40,001 nt of DNA from Escherichia virus TH20. Of this stretch, positions 808 through 40,001 are shown one piece after another. The notes beneath the pieces are model-generated. The model did no database searches. It was given only the letters and a program-made list of their open reading frames with translations, and was not told the DNA's origin. Every line of letters begins with the position of its first letter. The stretch's first letter is position 1. The position numbers and the translations under genes were made by a program. The stretch is taken from the sequence record MT446394.1; one strand, written 5' to 3'.

Positions 808-2316
808 CTTAGCGGTAGCCATGATGTTGTCGTGGTTATCTTCCACCCACTTGATGCGCTCATCGAAGGTTACTTTATCGACACCCGCACAGTTTGCACC
901 GTGGACCTTCAGCCATTTGAAACCATCAGCACCAATAGGCTTACCGACTGCCAGAGTCAGGAGACCCTTTTGCATGTCGTTACCCTGAGGGTTGAACATC
1001 GGCACAGCGTAGACGCGACCGCGCCAGTCCATGTTATACGGGAACCAGATGGCCTTGAACTGAGAGAACTTGTTCGCTTGGTTAACGATAAAGCTCAGTG
1101 ACAATCTGCGTGACTGGCGGGCCTTCTCTCGGCGGTAGATACCAGCAGCAGTCTTCTTCCATGCCTTGAGTTCCTCTTCAGTCTCACCCGCATAGTCTTC
1201 AGGCTTCAGTGGCTCCATCTGAGGGATGTCATCAATAGGCGTGTTGTTCAACTTCTCGACCATGTTCACCACGTCCAGAACCTTCTTGTTCACTTTCCAA
1301 GGCGTATTCTGGATGATATTCACAGCGTCATAGACTTCAGGCATGTACACGTCTTCATAGCGTGCCACCGCAGACTTAGACCCTAAGCGAATCAATGGTA
1401 GTGGTCTGCGACCTTTGGCCCAGTACCCACCGCCTACGACACCAGTCCATGGCTTAGGTGGAACGACGCAAGGTTGATAGACCGGAGCGATACCCGCAAG
1501 GCTGAAGCCTCGTTGTGCCATCTTCTTGACCCAGAAGTCTGACAGGTGGACCATCTCTACATCAGCCGCTGCATTGCCAGCACCGTAGCGCTTAAGCTCG
1601 ACCAGTTGTGTTGACTGGATGACAATCTCAAGCATCTTGATTCCAACGTGGACAGCCTCGGTCGGACTCCAAGTCCCCCACGCATCTTCCAGTTGTCCTT
1701 GCTCCAGCATGGATGTCTCAACCGCTTGCATGTAGGCTTTTTTGTAGGATGCCCCGGCCCGCTTGTTCAGGTTCTCAGCTATCGCCTTCTTGAAGTGCTC
1801 CTTCTCCTTGTCACGGATGCGACCGAAGCGGATTTCGTCCTCAAGTGTGCGACCTATCGCGGAGGCCATCGGTGTAATCGGTATCCCTTCAGGCTTGACC
1901 AGCTTGGAGAGTATTACCTTCAGTATGATGACCGCAGCAGACTCGCAGGAGATACGCAGATAGCGGTCCTTGACGGCCTTCTCTTCAGTGCTCAACATGG
2001 TGAACGCTACGCTAGGACGAGAGGTTGACAGCTTCCCGTCTGGACCTTCATGCCACTCCCTGACGGCTTGCGCAATCTTAGGGACCAGAGTCTGCATCAA
2101 AGGCTTGGCGACCTGATTGTCTGCCAGTTCCCCACGCTCAGTCTGTCGCTCAAGGTTCTTGATGAAACGTCGCTCGCCTTCAGTGTATGCCTCATGCTCA
2201 AGCTGAAGCTGTTTGACTGCAAGGTCTTGTCCATAGTGGTCAGCCAGCAGGTTAAACGGCTCAATAGCGTTAGACACATCAGAGAAGTCGTGTTTGTCAA
2301 TAGAGATGACGCTCAT
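1..2316 (-). CDS. T7-type single-subunit DNA-directed RNA polymerase (gene 1), N-terminal 772 codons; continues at 38829..39194 (full length about 893 aa)
   Basis: ATG at 2316-2314 with AAGGA upstream; hand translation MSVISIDKHDFSD... runs co-linear with T7 RNAP (FPYNMDWRGRVYA, NPQGNDM, HGANCAGVDK); no stop before window start. Confidence 0.95.
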   Translation of the reverse strand, partial: MSVISIDKHDFSDVSNAIEPFNLLADHYGQDLAVKQLQLEHEAYTEGERRFIKNLERQTERGELADNQVAKPLMQTLVPKIAQAVREWHEGPDGKLSTSRPSVAFTMLSTEEKAVKDRYLRISCESAAVIILKVILSKLVKPEGIPITPMASAIGRTLEDEIRFGRIRDKEKEHFKKAIAENLNKRAGASYKKAYMQAVETSMLEQGQLEDAWGTWSPTEAVHVGIKMLEIVIQSTQLVELKRYGAGNAAADVEMVHLSDFWVKKMAQRGFSLAGIAPVYQPCVVPPKPWTGVVGGGYWAKGRRPLPLIRLGSKSAVARYEDVYMPEVYDAVNIIQNTPWKVNKKVLDVVNMVEKLNNTPIDDIPQMEPLKPEDYAGETEEELKAWKKTAAGIYRREKARQSRRLSLSFIVNQANKFSQFKAIWFPYNMDWRGRVYAVPMFNPQGNDMQKGLLTLAVGKPIGADGFKWLKVHGANCAGVDKVTFDERIKWVEDNHDNIMATAKAPMDSIEWWGKLDSPFCFLAFCFEYAGVMHHGLSYSCSLPIAFDGSCSGIQHFSAMLRDHIGGHAVNLTPSGKVQDIYRIVSDRIEEELKVLLVNGTDNEMVTHEDKKTGEITERLKLGTRELARQWLTYGMSRKVTKRSVMTLAYGSKEYGFADQVYEDIVMPAIDAGSGAMFTEPSQASRFMAKMIWEAVSVTVVAAVDAMKWLQGAAKLLAAEVKDKKTGEILKPCLPVHWVTPDGFPVWQEYRKKDTTRLNLMFLGSFNLQPTVN

Positions 2317-2385
2317 ACTTAAAGTCCTTGTTATTAGTCTTTCACTTAAAGTCTCTTTGGTCTTTCACTTGGAGTCTTAGACCTT

Positions 2386-2408
2386 GAGTCCTATAGTGAT
2401 AATTAAGT
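2386..2408 (-). promoter_or_regulatory. Phage-RNAP promoter-like site (variant TTAATTATCACTATAGGACTC) about 70 nt upstream of the RNAP gene
   Basis: CACTATAGG core on minus strand, +1 G at 2391; differs from window consensus at -10 and +3 to +6. Confidence 0.45.
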
Positions 2409-2413
2409 CAGAA

Positions 2414-2674
2414 TCACTTGAATATCAGTGGGTTAGCGTGAAGATGGCTGAAGTCACCATGAGTCGTGTGCTTGATGGTTGACCGTTGGTCTATCGCCGT
2501 CCAGCCTGAGACTAAAAGTTTACCATCGTCAGTGATTGGTCGTCCACCATACGCCAGACACATCAGTTCGGACTTATGGCCCTCAGCCATCATGCGGCGC
2601 TGTAAGAACATGTCACGCTGCGCTTGCTCAACACGGCTACGGCTAGAGGGTTTGTTAGTGTATACGGTTTTCAT
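2414..2674 (-). CDS. Hypothetical early protein, 86 aa
   Basis: ATG at 2674 overlaps stop of upstream ORF (TAATG); last ORF of the early operon before gene 1; no family recognised. Confidence 0.5.
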   Translation of the reverse strand: MKTVYTNKPSSRSRVEQAQRDMFLQRRMMAEGHKSELMCLAYGGRPITDDGKLLVSGWTAIDQRSTIKHTTHGDFSHLHANPLIFK

Positions 2675-2871
2675 TACAGTTTGCTCCCAAGAGTTGCTAT
2701 ATCCCAGACGTTCGCTAAGTTGCGCATGAATCGTCCGTTAGGTTGACGTACAGTCCAGCGACCCAGACGTACATAGTTAAATTTGTAGACTTTACGCGCT
2801 TTGTTGATGTCTCTCACCAGCACGTAGGTGATAAGTCCATAGCCGAAGATACCCAGAAGTATCCAGCTCAT
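2674..2871 (-). CDS. Hypothetical early protein, 65 aa, hydrophobic N-terminus then basic tail
   Basis: ATG start overlapping upstream stop (TAATG); N-terminal WILLGIFGYGLITYVLV looks like a TM helix. Confidence 0.5.
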   Translation of the reverse strand: MSWILLGIFGYGLITYVLVRDINKARKVYKFNYVRLGRWTVRQPNGRFMRNLANVWDIATLGSKL

Positions 2872-2960
2872 TAGAATGACCCTCGCTTGATTGCGTCAAG
2901 AAGGCCCCAAGCTATCAGGAAGATGACCGGAGACAGGCATACCCAGTAACCTATATTCAT
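2871..2960 (-). CDS. Hypothetical small hydrophobic peptide, 29 aa
   Basis: Hand translation MNIGYWVCLSPVIFLIAWGLLDAIKRGSF; TAGGAG 6 nt upstream of ATG; stop overlaps next start; below track size cutoff. Confidence 0.3.
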   Translation of the reverse strand: MNIGYWVCLSPVIFLIAWGLLDAIKRGSF

Positions 2961-3030
2961 AGTTAACTCCTATCAATGTAAGTGAAAATCTTTGAGGCCA
3001 CCTATCAGTCGATGACCTCTCGTCTATCAC

Positions 3031-3156
3031 TCAGTACCCGCCTGTCAGCGTTATGGTCAGGCTATGGTGATTAGCCACGTAGCAGGCCCCGCGCTTCATC
3101 ATCTCGTAGCACCCATCGTAGAACGCCTGTTCACTACTATAAGTTATCTGGTACAT
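3031..3156 (-). CDS. Hypothetical early protein, 41 aa
   Basis: Hand translation MYQITYSSEQAFYDGCYEMMKRGACYVANHHSLTITLTGGY; GAGGA upstream; below track size cutoff. Confidence 0.3.
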   Translation of the reverse strand: MYQITYSSEQAFYDGCYEMMKRGACYVANHHSLTITLTGGY

Positions 3157-3158
3157 GT

Positions 3159-3314
3159 TTACTTGTCCTCAGAGTGTAAGCTGTCGTGTATACGCTTGCG
3201 GCCCTCATAGACCGCCTTCAGGTGACGCATAGTCGCATCATGGTTTAACTGCCCGGTCTTGACCATAATCCGGGCGTTAGCGACGTGGTGCTGGCAGAGA
3301 CCATAAGTTACCAT
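3159..3314 (-). CDS. Hypothetical early protein, 51 aa
   Basis: ATG overlaps stop of Ocr-like gene (TGATG); hand translation [51 protein letters not shown]. Confidence 0.35.
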   Translation of the reverse strand: MVTYGLCQHHVANARIMVKTGQLNHDATMRHLKAVYEGRKRIHDSLHSEDK

Positions 3315-3823
3315 CACTCGCAGTCCTCCTCAGCAGCCGCAGGGTCGAACACTACGTTATCGTTGATGTCTTCGACCTGCATGTGAAAACCTTCCTCATA
3401 GAGTTCTTTTGCACATGCAATAGCCTCGTAAAGTGATACAGATGCCTCAATTATCTCGCCTGTTCTAGTGTCAACTACCCAATATTCAGCCTTTTCGTCT
3501 TCCTCCTCAGCCTCAAACCAGACCACATCCGAGCTATTAGACACATCGTTATATAGTGCCTCATAAATGCGAGCTTGCAGTATACGCGTTACGTCCTTGG
3601 TCTCAGGCATCAGCCCAGAGTCTTCAAACTCGTGGTCGATACCATCAGCAGCCATCACCGTGAAGATCTCGTGGTAATAGTGCGGAACCTGACCGTCTAC
3701 GACTTCATGCAGCGCATCGTAATAATCATCACCTTCAGCTATTTCGTCGTACTGAATGCGCTCGTTAAACGCTTCAACAGTTGCAGCTAGCAGCTCATAG
3801 TATGCGTTAGCGTTACGTTCCAT
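3314..3823 (-). CDS. Ocr-like anti-restriction DNA-mimic protein (T7 gene 0.3 homologue) with C-terminal extension, 169 aa
   Basis: Acidic protein; N-terminal 95 aa share [42 protein letters not shown] with T7 Ocr; ATG 3823 preceded by GAGAGGA; first gene after the host-promoter region. Confidence 0.8.
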
Positions 3824-4134
3824 AATTATATCCTCTCAGTTGTTAGTGACTATCAGTCAGAGCCTTCAGATGTAGACTCAAAGACTCTGTAGTTAGTCGC
3901 TATCGGCGCACATTAAGAGTTTATCCAGATTGTTAAAGAGCGTTGAGGTCGTCAACCTCCGAGGTATTCGGTAGTTCCTAACCTTGTCTGTCACCGCGCT
4001 ATAGGTAGTGACTTAGTATCCGACAACCAGACCTTCTTCACTCGGTGAAGCCCGACCTCTCAATTTACTCTTAGTGAGGTGCTTAGAGTGTACCTGCTGC
4101 CAGTCCTTGGTAGCGTCTTGCTGCTTGGTGAATC

Positions 4135-4164
4135 ATACTACTTTAAGTCGTTACTGCTTGTCAA
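4135..4164 (-). promoter_or_regulatory. Candidate host sigma70 early promoter (T7 A2/A3-like): TTGACA, 18-nt spacer, TAGTAT
   Basis: -35 at 4164-4159 and -10 at 4140-4135 on minus strand; flanking AAGTAGACAGCCTGATAAGTC resembles the T7 early promoter region as I recall it. Confidence 0.35.
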
Positions 4165-4276
4165 CTACTTTCTGTCATCTGCCTGTTGTTCGTATGACTT
4201 ATCAGGCTGTCTACTTAACCGGGATGACCCGGCGTCTTCACTATCCGGTTGTTGCCGTGTCGTGTTGATGGAAGCT

Positions 4277-4305
4277 ATTAGGCCCTAGTCTGGACCTATA
4301 GTCAA
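4277..4305 (-). promoter_or_regulatory. Candidate host sigma70 early promoter (T7 A1-like): TTGACT, 17-nt spacer, CCTAAT
   Basis: -35 at 4305-4300, weak -10 at 4282-4277; overlaps a degenerate phage-promoter-like CTATAGG element. Confidence 0.25.
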
Positions 4306-4417
4306 TAGGTAATTTGAAATAATATTGATTGAGCTATCGTCGGCCCCATGGTGTAAGAGGATATAGTCTTTGACTAACATGTCTTTGACCTTAAGTCTAT
4401 AGCCATTGTGTCTATTA

Positions 4418-4485
4418 ACTGTAGGTTTAGACTGTAGGTAGCGGCATTACCGATGGTAGATGACTGTAGGTAGTTAGACTGTAGG
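4418..4485. repeat. Array of four CCTACAGT octamer repeats (minus-strand sense), left-end side of predicted terminal repeat
   Basis: ACTGTAGG on plus strand at 4418, 4431, 4463, 4478; analogous in position to the CCTAAAG arrays of T7. Confidence 0.6.
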
Positions 4486-4499
4486 TAGTGACTCAAGGT

Positions 4500-4689
4500 C
4501 TGATACAGATAGAGACTCAAAGACAGACCCATAGTCCCAACCTATCGTCCTTCCCTAAGCCATAGCCTCTACCTATCGTTGACCTGAAGTCTTTACCAGC
4601 GGTCAAACCTTATGATAGACTGGGGTAGGGCCTTTGGTCTGGACTGAAAGAGGGCCTATGGGGAGACTTGAGGTTCTTGAACTGTGAGA
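4500..4689. repeat. Predicted direct terminal repeat (single collapsed copy); physical left terminus near 4689 on the minus strand
   Basis: Minus-strand TCTCACAGTTCAAGAACC at 4689-4672 matches the conserved left-end start of T7/T3; distal boundary (about 4500) is a guess from similarity to the T7 repeat end. Confidence 0.35.
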
Positions 4690-4727
4690 TGTGGTCTCAA
4701 ACTTTTGGTCCAAAACTCATCGTCACT

Positions 4728-4765
4728 ACTGTAGGCCACAGCCACTGTAGGTCAAGGACCGTAGG
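4728..4765. repeat. Array of three CCTACAGT-type octamer repeats, right-end side of predicted terminus
   Basis: ACTGTAGG at 4728 and 4744, ACCGTAGG at 4758 on plus strand. Confidence 0.55.
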
Positions 4766-4926
4766 TCAGGCGACACTAGGATAGACCAATAAGTAGGATG
4801 ACCCTAAGTGAGCTTCTCTTAAGGTGTTACCTAAAGTCCTTGACTACAGTAGCTAAGGTCAGTAGAGTAGCGTCAGCTATGAACTGACCTTAGGTCTTGC
4901 TTTCGTTGATTGTTACCATGATTGCG

Positions 4927-5085
4927 TTAATTACACTCAGACACCAGAGAACATACGAGAGTCTCGACCCACCCGACCCACTGACTTCCAGCAGTAACGC
5001 CAGCAGCAAGTAGAACAGCAGCAAGAAACCTGTATGTAGCTCGATTGGTCGCCAGAGCTTTAAGTACAGCTTTGGTCTTTGCCAT
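4927..5085 (-). CDS. Small protein at the gene 19.5 position, 52 aa
   Basis: Hand translation MAKTKAVLKALATNRATYRFLAAVLLAAGVTAGSQWVGWVETLVCSLVSECN; GGAGG upstream (10-nt spacer); lies between the rightmost phage promoter and the genome end as in T7. Confidence 0.4.
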   Translation of the reverse strand: MAKTKAVLKALATNRATYRFLAAVLLAAGVTAGSQWVGWVETLVCSLVSECN

Positions 5086-5264
5086 ATGCTACATACCTCC
5101 TGTATCTATGGTCGGTGACTATCTGTATTGGAGGGATTATGATTAATATCACCTCCTTCCATCGGTGCAAGCCTTAGGTAAGAACTAGGAGTCTGCCTCC
5201 TAAGGTCTTGCATAAAGTCTGCATATGTATATTCACTACAGTAATACTATAAGTAACCGGGGGT

Positions 5265-5287
5265 CTTCCCTATAGTGATAGTTAAGT
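5265..5287 (-). promoter_or_regulatory. Phage-RNAP promoter (phiOR position, downstream of large terminase): ACTTAACTATCACTATAGGGAAG
   Basis: Near-consensus 23-mer on minus strand, +1 G at 5270. Confidence 0.7.
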
Positions 5288-5381
5288 CCAAACTCCTTGT
5301 AAAACAGTAGGTTAGACTGGTAGCAACTATAGGTTACTAACTGCGTATTCATGCAGCTTTCACCTATAGTTATTCATTCAG

Positions 5382-7145
5382 CTAGTGGAACGTAACGTAT
5401 GACCCTAGTCCAAGCTCGTCGTCCGTATCGTGAGTTACCCGGACCCCATTGTCCCAGAACTCAGTGTGGATGGACTCGAAGCCTTTCCGTGGGTTCTCCA
5501 TCTGTTCCTCCAGCCACTCCTCAGTGACTTCACGTTCGCCTTTGTTGGCATCCTTAGCCATAGACTCAACGAAGAACTGTACACCGATAGCTAGCGCATC
5601 AAGTCGGTCATCGTGTGCCAAGGCCCCACGTTCACGAGAGATACGTGTCATCTGGTAGAAGAGAGAGTAGATAGGGTTACGAACACCATCCTTATCAGAG
5701 GCCGACTGGTAGTCTTGGACGATAGCAGCAGCGTTAACGATAAGTCGGTGAGACCCCATGATAGGCTCCAGAACGTCACAGATGCGGAGTTCTTTCTGAC
5801 CCTTACTCTTCACTTCAGTTACAGCCGCAGGATGGATACGGGCCGCTACAGGCTTGAATAGCTCAAGGTACATACCATCACCGAAGTTACCCTCAATGAC
5901 GTATTCGTTGACCTTCCACTTACGACCAATCTTAGCCAGCGCTTCAAGCGTAGAGTCTTCATAACCACCCCGCATACCACCAACTTCCATAGCGAAGATG
6001 TAGCCGTTGAGCTGGTACAGTACCGCATAGCCAGTTTCATCCTTACCACGACCACTAGGGTCAATGACCAGAATCTTCTGGGTGTACGAACTGAAGGCAG
6101 AACCTACAGTCTGATACGTGTGGTATGAGTCACCCATGAGTCCAACGTTAGGAACGTCCTCACGCTTGTTCTGAGGGTTTGGCAGCCATTGGTAGACCAT
6201 TGGGCTGGACGCTGGGTCCAAGTCGGCTACGATAAGGTCACGGAGCTTCAGAGGGTACTTCTCAGCATCACTTAGGTTCGGGTTAAGCATGAACTGTAGA
6301 GCGAAGCCGGCTTTACCATAGGACAGCTCACGTTCCTTCAGGTCAGTATCGTCGAATCGAACTTCATCGGTCGGACGCCAGTAGAAGGCCTCAGGGTCCT
6401 CTTCAAGCTCTGCCTGAAGCATAGGAGCCAGACGGTCTCCGTAAGACTGCCAGTCCTTCCTGTCGCGTGGATAACGAGCAGGCCAGATAGTAGTGGTGTA
6501 CCCACGGCCTTCCAACTCACGATACAAGGTCATCTCGTTCTGAGGAGTACCCAGATAGATGATCGTACCTCCCGGCTTCAGGATAGCGTCGAACTCTTTC
6601 ACAAGCTCTGACAGACGGTCTCGTGCGGCCTGAGTCGCTGAGTTGTTTGGAACCTCCACGTCGTCGGCAATCAGGATGTCGGCACGACTACCAGTCAACT
6701 GACCAGTGATACCAACGGACTTAACCGAAGGTGAGTGGTCTGGCTTGGCTGGTCCAACATCGAAGCTGATAACCGCATCTCGCTGCCCCTGCTTAGGTTT
6801 GAGCTCCTGAAGCTGAGGCATGAGGTCGATGATTCGCTTGATGAAGATGGAGTTAGCATCGGCTCGTTCCTTTGAGGCCGACACAATCATGAACTTCAAG
6901 TCTGGGTTGTTCCATAACTTCCAGACCACGAAGGCACACGTAATGAAGGACTTCCCGATACCACGGAACGCTTGTAGGATGAAGCGCCTGTTGCCCCCAG
7001 ACGATAGTTTCTTCGCCATGTCAATCTGACAGCGAGTCGGGACTGGGAGTGACAGAGCTTTCCACAGGACGAACAGGAAGAACACGAAGTCTGCCTTCAT
7101 ACGGGCAGTCATTAGCGCCTGACGCGCCACTAAATCTTTACTCAA
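5382..7145 (-). CDS. Terminase large subunit (T7 gp19-like), 587 aa
   Basis: Co-linear with T7 gp19 ([39 protein letters not shown]); start is TTG at 7145 with AAGGAGG 6 nt upstream, overlapping spanin stop. Confidence 0.97.
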
Positions 7146-38828: not shown

Positions 38829-40001
38829 TTAAGCGAATGCAAAGTCTGAAGACAAGATGTCTTCGATATTCAGTTTACCTTTCTTCGGAAGCTCTGGCAA
38901 CTTATCGCGCTGGCTCTCATGAAGCTGGTATTCAAACTGCTCATAGAAGTCAAGCAGCACATCGTTGTCTCGGTAGGTCTCGACCATCGTCTCACGGACA
39001 CCACGGAACAGATACTCAGCGTCAGCCGGGATGGTCCCGAAGCTATCATGAATCACTGCGAATGACATCACGTCATACTTGCGATGAGTGTGGACTACAG
39101 TCTTGCGTAGGTGGCTACCATCTTGTGAGTGGACGAAGTTCGGGCTAATGCCTGACTCCTGCTTGTGCTTGTCCAGCTCTTTCTTCGTGCCTTTGTTGAC
39201 GGTAGGCTGAAGGTTGAATGACCCTAAGAACATCAGGTTCAGACGAGTGGTATCCTTCTTGCGGTATTCCTGCCAGACCGGGAAACCATCAGGTGTGACC
39301 CAGTGTACCGGAAGGCAAGGCTTCAGGATTTCACCCGTCTTCTTGTCCTTCACTTCAGCAGCCAGCAGCTTGGCAGCACCTTGAAGCCACTTCATAGCGT
39401 CTACCGCAGCAACTACGGTCACGCTCACAGCTTCCCAAATCATCTTAGCCATGAATCGGGACGCTTGGCTTGGCTCGGTGAACATAGCTCCAGACCCTGC
39501 GTCAATTGCGGGCATCACGATGTCCTCGTAAACTTGGTCTGCGAAGCCGTACTCTTTCGACCCGTAGGCCAGAGTCATGACTGAGCGCTTAGTAACCTTG
39601 CGTGACATACCGTAAGTCAGCCACTGCCGGGCCAGCTCTCGTGTCCCCAGCTTGAGACGTTCGGTAATCTCACCAGTTTTCTTGTCCTCGTGAGTTACCA
39701 TCTCGTTGTCCGTGCCGTTAACCAACAGGACTTTAAGCTCCTCCTCAATGCGGTCAGACACGATGCGGTAGATGTCTTGGACCTTACCGGAAGGCGTCAG
39801 GTTTACTGCATGTCCACCGATGTGATCACGAAGCATCGCGCTGAAGTGCTGAATCCCAGAGCAGGACCCATCGAAAGCTATCGGCAGCGAGCAGGAGTAA
39901 GACAAACCGTGGTGCATTACGCCAGCATACTCGAAGCAGAACGCTAGGAAGCAGAACGGAGAGTCTAACTTACCCCACCACTCAATGCTGTCCATCGGTG
40001 C
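38829..40001 (-). CDS. T7-type RNA polymerase (gene 1), C-terminal 390 codons plus stop; the part above 39194 duplicates 1-807
   Basis: Translation ends ...DILSSDFAFA as T7 RNAP; contains HQESGI.PNFVHSQDGSHLR and IHDSFGT active-site region; stop at 38829. Confidence 0.95.
   Translation of the reverse strand, partial: APMDSIEWWGKLDSPFCFLAFCFEYAGVMHHGLSYSCSLPIAFDGSCSGIQHFSAMLRDHIGGHAVNLTPSGKVQDIYRIVSDRIEEELKVLLVNGTDNEMVTHEDKKTGEITERLKLGTRELARQWLTYGMSRKVTKRSVMTLAYGSKEYGFADQVYEDIVMPAIDAGSGAMFTEPSQASRFMAKMIWEAVSVTVVAAVDAMKWLQGAAKLLAAEVKDKKTGEILKPCLPVHWVTPDGFPVWQEYRKKDTTRLNLMFLGSFNLQPTVNKGTKKELDKHKQESGISPNFVHSQDGSHLRKTVVHTHRKYDVMSFAVIHDSFGTIPADAEYLFRGVRETMVETYRDNDVLLDFYEQFEYQLHESQRDKLPELPKKGKLNIEDILSSDFAFA
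39195..40001. repeat. Window-end duplication, copy 2 (same sequence as 1-807)
   Basis: See copy 1. Confidence 0.9.

Follow-up and report, generated by a model that had tools for sequence, protein, structure and literature searches.

Do the small genes between the Ocr-like gene and the RNA polymerase (RNAP) gene of Escherichia virus TH20 take the place of T7 genes 0.4 to 0.7, or do they keep the T7 arrangement? We addressed this question in a window of 40,001 nucleotides (nt), the whole stretch analysed here (record MT446394.1). A preliminary description of this DNA had listed five open reading frames (ORFs) of 51, 41, 29, 65 and 86 amino acids (aa) in the interval, called ORF1 to ORF5 below, and had concluded that they replace the T7 0.4-0.7 block. 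The answer that we favour, with a probability of roughly 0.85, is that they form part of the class I (early) block that is standard in K1F-like phages, that is, to this lineage's version of the T7/T3 0.3-to-1 operon and not to a replacement of it.

The two ends of the window, 1-807 and 39195-40001, are identical at 807 of 807 bases, so that the window represents a single genome of 39,194 bp in circularly permuted form, plus the wrap. It is a complete K1F-like (Kayfunavirus) genome: the region 2300-3900 matched 238 phage records, and its top megablast matches, with 87-95% identity, were mostly classified as or named Kayfunavirus (K1F-like, Studiervirinae). The genes are carried by the minus strand, in the order terminase, left-end promoter region, ocr-like gene, five small ORFs and RNAP gene (start 2316). 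All five ORFs were found as listed, on that strand (Table 1), and the view of the region as the tightly packed early region of a T7-group phage was borne out. The junctions had been described as mostly TGATG or TAATG. This is true of three out of five, where stop and start overlap by 1 nt (ocr/ORF1, TGATG; ORF3/ORF4 and ORF4/ORF5, TAATG); ORF1 and ORF2 are spaced by 2 nt (TAAACATG) and ORF2 and ORF3 by 70 nt.

Table 1. Features of the TH20 early block and its boundaries, in window coordinates (dN/dS, ratio of nonsynonymous to synonymous substitution rates; KD17, Kyte-Doolittle value of 17-mers)
Feature	Coordinates	Strand	Evidence
R0.3-type RNase III site candidate, 5′ of ocr; putative upstream boundary of processed early mRNA	3845..3900	-	alignment with T7 and T3 R0.3
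ocr-like gene 0.3, 169 aa; opens the block	3314..3823	-	Pfam ocr PF08684, E = 1.3e-30; phrog_2568, E = 6.7e-56
ORF1, 51 aa, diverged T7 gp0.4 homologue (FtsZ inhibitor family)	3159..3314	-	PF26807 and profile-profile match
ORF2, 41 aa, genus-restricted orphan, soluble	3031..3156	-	dN/dS 0.05; 109 phage records
R0.5-type RNase III processing hairpin in the ORF2/ORF3 gap (2961-3030)	2979..3033	-	aligns with T7 and T3 R0.5
ORF3, 29 aa, single-pass hydrophobic peptide at the T7 gp0.5 position	2871..2960	-	maximum KD17 2.04; dN/dS 0.16
ORF4, 65 aa, T3-type gp0.6 (K1F 'gene 0.6')	2674..2871	-	phrog_2385, E = 4.8e-29
ORF5, 86 aa, short form of the EcoDS1 'Gp0.38' / CR8 '0.38' family	2414..2674	-	phrog_7066, E = 3.9e-41
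Phage-RNAP promoter directly 5′ of gene 1; downstream block boundary	2386..2408	-	exact core TATCACTATAGG at 2390-2401(-)

By profile comparison, ORF1 is a diverged member of the T7 Gp0.4 family. The exact protein is on record as Pfam PF26807 (Phage_T7_GP04) in a newer Pfam release; scans with a Pfam copy without this model, with NCBIfam and with PADLOC gave no match for any of the five ORFs. In EcoDS1, CLB_P1 and CR44b its counterparts are named 'gp0.35' or '0.4'. BLASTP against T7 gp0.4 gave 39% identity over 41 residues, and in PHROG each of the two proteins matched its own family strongly and the other's at about 1e-5, phrog_25044 being common to both. Alignment of the K1F-type and T7-type families by hhalign reached 94.9% probability (E = 4e-8, 48 columns). 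The relationship is specific in both directions: a hidden Markov model (HMM) of the T7 family, searched against 859 six-frame segments of the window, had the ORF1 frame as its sole significant match (E = 8.7e-6; next 2.6), and the reverse search returned T7 gene 0.4 at E = 1.4e-4 (next best 1.1). Sequences intermediate between the two occur in other T7-group phages (L032, L029, P0202). Position agrees as well. Like T7 Gp0.4, ORF1 has 51 aa and lies directly after ocr; its ATG overlaps the ocr stop codon, an arrangement found in T7 at position 1278. The pattern YGL...G...AM..LK..Y...K is common to both proteins, which differ in that ORF1 is only about 33-39% identical to Gp0.4 and has a basic net charge. 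The claim that no ORF of the block resembles T7 gp0.4-0.7 therefore fails for ORF1, for which homology to a characterised T7 early protein, named in the preliminary description itself as grounds for refutation, was found.

Two antiparallel helices are expected of members of the Gp0.4 family. T7 Gp0.4 binds the FtsZ monomer at its synergy-loop face and needs each of six residues, V15, V22, W28, M32, L35 and Y39, to do so (PMC13423816). Five of the six contact residues have identical counterparts in ORF1 when the two are aligned by hhalign (V11, V18, M29, L32 and Y36), and T7 W28 is aligned to His25. FtsZ inhibition is probably retained by ORF1, the change at W28 being a serious caveat. The residues of T7 Gp0.4 that activate CapRel-Ebc show another picture: four of six differ in ORF1 (A12->Q, T14->H, L16->A, S19->R), R23->K is conservative and K36 is kept, so that sensing by CapRel-Ebc may have been lost. 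With a diverged gp0.4 changed at most of the CapRel-Ebc-triggering residues, it can be asked in a natural setting whether FtsZ inhibition is separable from immune sensing. A PDB sequence search with the ORF1 profile gave no match.

The most useful outcome of this assignment is its link to the 'missing' FtsZ inhibitor of K1F. In a 2022 study (PMC9372555), infection by K1F led to multi-ring filaments and FtsZ was found to be blocked; its authors described K1F as a phage that "lacks the 0.4 genes" and suggested a novel inhibitor. K1F gp02, the counterpart of ORF1, is 73% identical to it and is the obvious candidate for this inhibitor. As the gene of 49-51 aa directly after ocr is a Pfam-recognised gp0.4 homologue with most of the FtsZ-contact residues, the K1F question becomes directly testable.

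A second element shared with T7 and T3 lies in the gap between ORF2 and ORF3, which by structure and position is R0.5, a conserved RNase III site of T7-group phages. As in R0.5, a two-stem hairpin with an internal loop separates the 0.4-side from the 0.5-side genes. The stems common to TH20, T7 and T3 are GAGUGAUA/UAUCACUU (lower) and AGGUC/GGCCU (upper), the lower one beginning inside the ORF2 stop codon. The minimum free energy of the hairpin is -24.8 kcal/mol (z = -3.0), to be compared with z = -3.2 for T7 R0.5 and z = -3.5 for T3 R0.5, and the consensus structure has 20 pairs, 3 of them with compensatory changes. The element is 90-97% conserved in 14 relatives, and in these it always directly precedes the small hydrophobic ORF that follows, including in loci with inserted genes. 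An Rfam search over 2200-5400 gave no match.

With R0.5 in this gap, the T7/T3 layout is retained rather than replaced, contrary to what had been concluded. The order R0.3, 0.3, 0.4, R0.5, small hydrophobic peptide, 0.6 is that of the T7/T3 early operon, and the full layout reads R0.3, 0.3, 0.4, (ORF2), R0.5, small membrane peptide, 0.6, ORF5, gene 1. TH20 differs by the lack of gp0.7, the lack of an R1-like site before gene 1 and the presence of two extra genus-specific genes, ORF2 and ORF5. An additional 44-aa ORF with a GTG start (2896..3030, minus strand) covers the R0.5 hairpin and shares part of its length with ORF3, in a different frame; a similar frame is present in SH3. It was judged non-coding: its conservation tracks the RNA element and ORF3 and is probably a by-product of them.

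ORF4 provides the other assigned gene and is identified by its profile as T3-type gp0.6. ORF4 and T3 gp0.6 both match phrog_2385 along their full length, the latter at E = 9.1e-30. ORF4 is 88% identical to K1F 'gene 0.6' and 36% to T3 gp0.6, and shares with T3 gp0.6, K1F gene 0.6 and EcoDS1 gp0.6 its length of 65 aa, an N-terminal predicted membrane helix (KD17 2.03), a basic C-terminal part (isoelectric point of the protein 11.0) with the conserved TVRxxNGRF, and its position 5′ of gene 1. The family is present in 641 phage records, including Kayfunavirus, Klebsiella, T3-like, Dickeya and Erwinia phages. The family has no relationship to the MreB inhibitor, T7 gp0.6A/B; neither T7 gp0.5 (phrog_16572) nor T7 gp0.6A/B (phrog_8393) has sequence homology to any of the five ORFs. 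ORF3 accordingly resembles T7 gp0.5 as a small hydrophobic peptide at the same position and in nothing more. Two of the five ORFs had been described as having hydrophobic N-termini; the N-terminal 17-mers of ORF3 and ORF4 are strongly hydrophobic (Kyte-Doolittle about 2.0). In relatives, the gene-order map shows ORF3 alternating or co-occurring with gp03 of K1F, a 55-aa two-helix peptide.

Put together, these features suggest the following course of events. By analogy with T7, host RNA polymerase would transcribe the block from the left end, presumably early in infection. RNase III is predicted to cut the transcript at R0.3 and R0.5, and translation would proceed in two coupled groups, ocr-ORF1-ORF2 and then ORF3-ORF4-ORF5. 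ORF1 would most likely bind monomeric FtsZ on the synergy-loop face and block assembly of the Z-ring. ORF3 would be a tiny inner-membrane peptide at the gp0.5 position and ORF4 a putatively membrane-anchored T3-type gp0.6, and ORF2 and ORF5 would be soluble proteins restricted to the genus.

Several points weigh against this reading. In T7 Gp0.4, W28 is essential, since W28L and W28A abolish FtsZ binding (PMC13423816), and with His25 in its place FtsZ binding by ORF1 could be altered or lost. Cleavage of the R0.5 hairpin by RNase III is inferred from its similarity to the known sites. A weak consensus scan for host early promoters found 8, for 4.4 expected. The family label of ORF4 explains little because T3-type gp0.6 has no known function. 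Finally, ORF2, ORF3 and ORF5 are genus-restricted orphans without a functional lead.

These three orphans speak for the reading of the preliminary description, in which none of the five ORFs is related to known early proteins of the T7 group and all are new takeover or anti-defence inhibitors, standing in for gp0.4-0.7 including the kinase. ORF2, ORF3 and ORF5 have no match in Pfam, PADLOC, NCBIfam or PDB, and the families of ORF2 and ORF5 are narrow. ORF2 was found in 109 phage records, 40 of which carry it at 99% identity or more, and as an identical protein on 141 contigs; among 5.8 billion proteins it forms just 18 clusters, none with a Pfam match, and it partially matches phrog_33188 (E = 1.8e-6). 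The family of ORF5 comprises 126 clusters at 90% identity, with 14 representative clusters among 1.84 billion proteins. In addition, the T7 kinase is a broad anti-defence factor (PMC13645617), so that phages devoid of it may need substitutes. TH20 is such a phage, as had been noted: tblastn across the whole genome with gp0.7 of T7 and T3, whose families are phrog_2828 and phrog_15752, gave a best E of 0.26.

Two of the five ORFs, ORF1 (Phage_T7_GP04) and ORF4 (T3-type gp0.6), nevertheless refute this reading for themselves, and the distribution of the kinase in relatives argues against the substitution that it proposes. A short kinase is found in about 47 records (at least 60% identity) and ORF5 in 218, which puts the kinase in about a fifth of relatives and makes its absence the majority state in the genus; K1F also lacks 0.7, according to its record and to our search. 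In lacking the kinase, TH20 is an ordinary member of its genus. The small genes also occur together with a kinase. ORF2, ORF4 and ORF5 coexist with it in vB_VIPECLMC06, which carries a 244-aa kinase-only T7K homologue 5′ of R0.5 (L055 1558-2292), and in Enterobacter phage B1, which has a 243-aa kinase between the 41-aa ORF and later small ORFs; homologues of ORF4 and ORF5 accompany a short kinase in CR8. These genes are therefore not kinase substitutes. Nor is ORF5 a free-standing form of the shut-off domain of the T7 kinase, a candidate that was rejected (hhalign below 1%). Taken as a whole, the idea of five new inhibitors replacing gp0.4-0.7 is unlikely, and the phrase 'candidates for undescribed inhibitors' can fairly be applied only to ORF2, ORF3 and ORF5, each of which many genome records already list as a hypothetical protein.

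A narrower proposal is that ORF5, which occupies the position of T7 gp0.7, could be a new host-shut-off or anti-defence effector whose tail (HTTxGDFSHL) docks a host protein, with the constrained ORF2 as a second inhibitor, the two together providing an alternative takeover route in kinase-less Kayfunaviruses. We regard this as speculative and rather improbable. ORF5 is a basic, helical protein in which the C-terminal motif GDFSHL is invariant. Its AlphaFold2 model, built from a diverse alignment, has a predicted local distance difference test (pLDDT) score of 80, with helices at 11-30, 34-41 and 49-66 and a low-confidence tail that contains GDFSHL; structure comparison and a PDB profile search revealed no fold or sequence relative outside its own family. 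Many members of the EcoDS1 Gp0.38 / CR8 0.38 family are longer than the 86 aa found here (108-139 aa), owing to an N-terminal extension of 22-53 aa. Near its C-terminus ORF5 carries LIFK (Phe) where the family usually has LICK (Cys). As for ORF2, it is the most constrained gene of the block, and 32% of its residues are Ser, Thr or Tyr. Such a composition is unusual, since relatives that encode a kinase reportedly have early proteins poor in these three amino acids.

Comparison of gene order in 38 loci placed the variable genes with respect to R0.5. While ocr, ORF1, ORF4 and ORF5 are present in nearly all Kayfunavirus-type loci, ORF2, ORF3 and K1F gp03 vary. Genes are exchanged on both sides of R0.5, where relatives carry ORF2, the short kinase, a helix-turn-helix (HTH) gene or alternative peptides: a 115-aa HTH/transposase-like ORF lies 5′ of R0.5 in SH3 (L007 1813-2160), and the 55-aa peptide lies 3′ of it in K1F (L005 1840-2007). 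With variable genes flanking it, the conserved R0.5 hairpin marks a well-defined site of exchange of use in phage engineering. The block itself is a modest discovery, being the ordinary early operon of a well-sampled genus in which every ORF has already been deposited, mostly as 'hypothetical protein'.

The identity of ORF1 has a competitor of its own, namely that it is a small HTH DNA-binding protein of the NinH, Fis or excisionase type and not an FtsZ inhibitor. Bacteriophage CHX131 labels its ORF1 homologue NinH, an N-terminally extended homologue (P0130) gave a very weak match to DUF1233, a putative excisionase (E = 0.16), and T7 Trp28 is not conserved. However, no Pfam NinH match was obtained, with family members searched at E up to 10 and ORF1 at E up to 1, and the gp0.4 homology is specific, reciprocal and accompanied by five of six interface residues. 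We consider an HTH function of ORF1 very improbable. The label in CHX131, 'NinH protein' for the gp0.4 homologue at L002 2098-2256, is likely a misannotation.

Short open frames arise readily by chance, 97 of at least 20 aa being present in 6.6 kb. The gene status of the five ORFs is supported mainly by evolutionary evidence. The dN/dS of ORF1 to ORF5, over 10-16 diverged loci, is 0.24, 0.05, 0.16, 0.32 and 0.27, respectively, and that of ocr 0.10. In tblastn searches, ORF1 was recovered from 180 phage records, ORF2 from 109, ORF4 from 641 and ORF5 from 218, and in an independent public contig all five ORFs were called as genes. A GGAG-type Shine-Dalgarno-like motif is present 7-10 nt 5′ of each of the five (for ORF3, AGGAG at 7 nt). 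From this pattern of conservation, the five ORFs are real genes. That some or all of them are chance open frames in a non-coding leader, as this background and the mere 29 aa of ORF3 might suggest, deserves next to no credence with each dN/dS far below 1, Shine-Dalgarno motifs throughout, a location on the coding strand and frames kept across 10-16 diverged loci. The ocr-associated orf24 of a 2023 accessory-gene screen (bioRxiv 10.1101/2023.04.06.535777) was also compared with the block; it starts MFKHEIYTDCNK and was rejected as one of the five ORFs.

The downstream boundary of the block is formed by the phage-RNAP promoter. Its core, TATCACTATAGG, occurs in 9 exact copies, all on the minus strand, and allowing up to 2 mismatches gave 16 matches for 2.5 expected by chance. 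The copy 5′ of gene 1 is also conserved in K1F. In TH20 this promoter stands where the R1 RNase III site and host promoter C are located in T7 and T3, and it would allow positive autoregulation of gene 1. At the opposite boundary, the R0.3-like fold is weakly better than shuffled sequences (z = -1.5). Both R0.3 and R0.5 are annotated in the T3 record.

The Ocr-like product that opens the block is 97% identical to K1F gp0.3. It has 169 aa, compared with 117 aa in T7, and many relatives align to its residues 1-103 or 1-110 only, which indicates that the C-terminal part (residues about 104-169) is a variable extra segment. In the public record of Escherichia phage CY1, the ocr homologue (L001 1578-2087) is labelled 'protein kinase', likely by misannotation.

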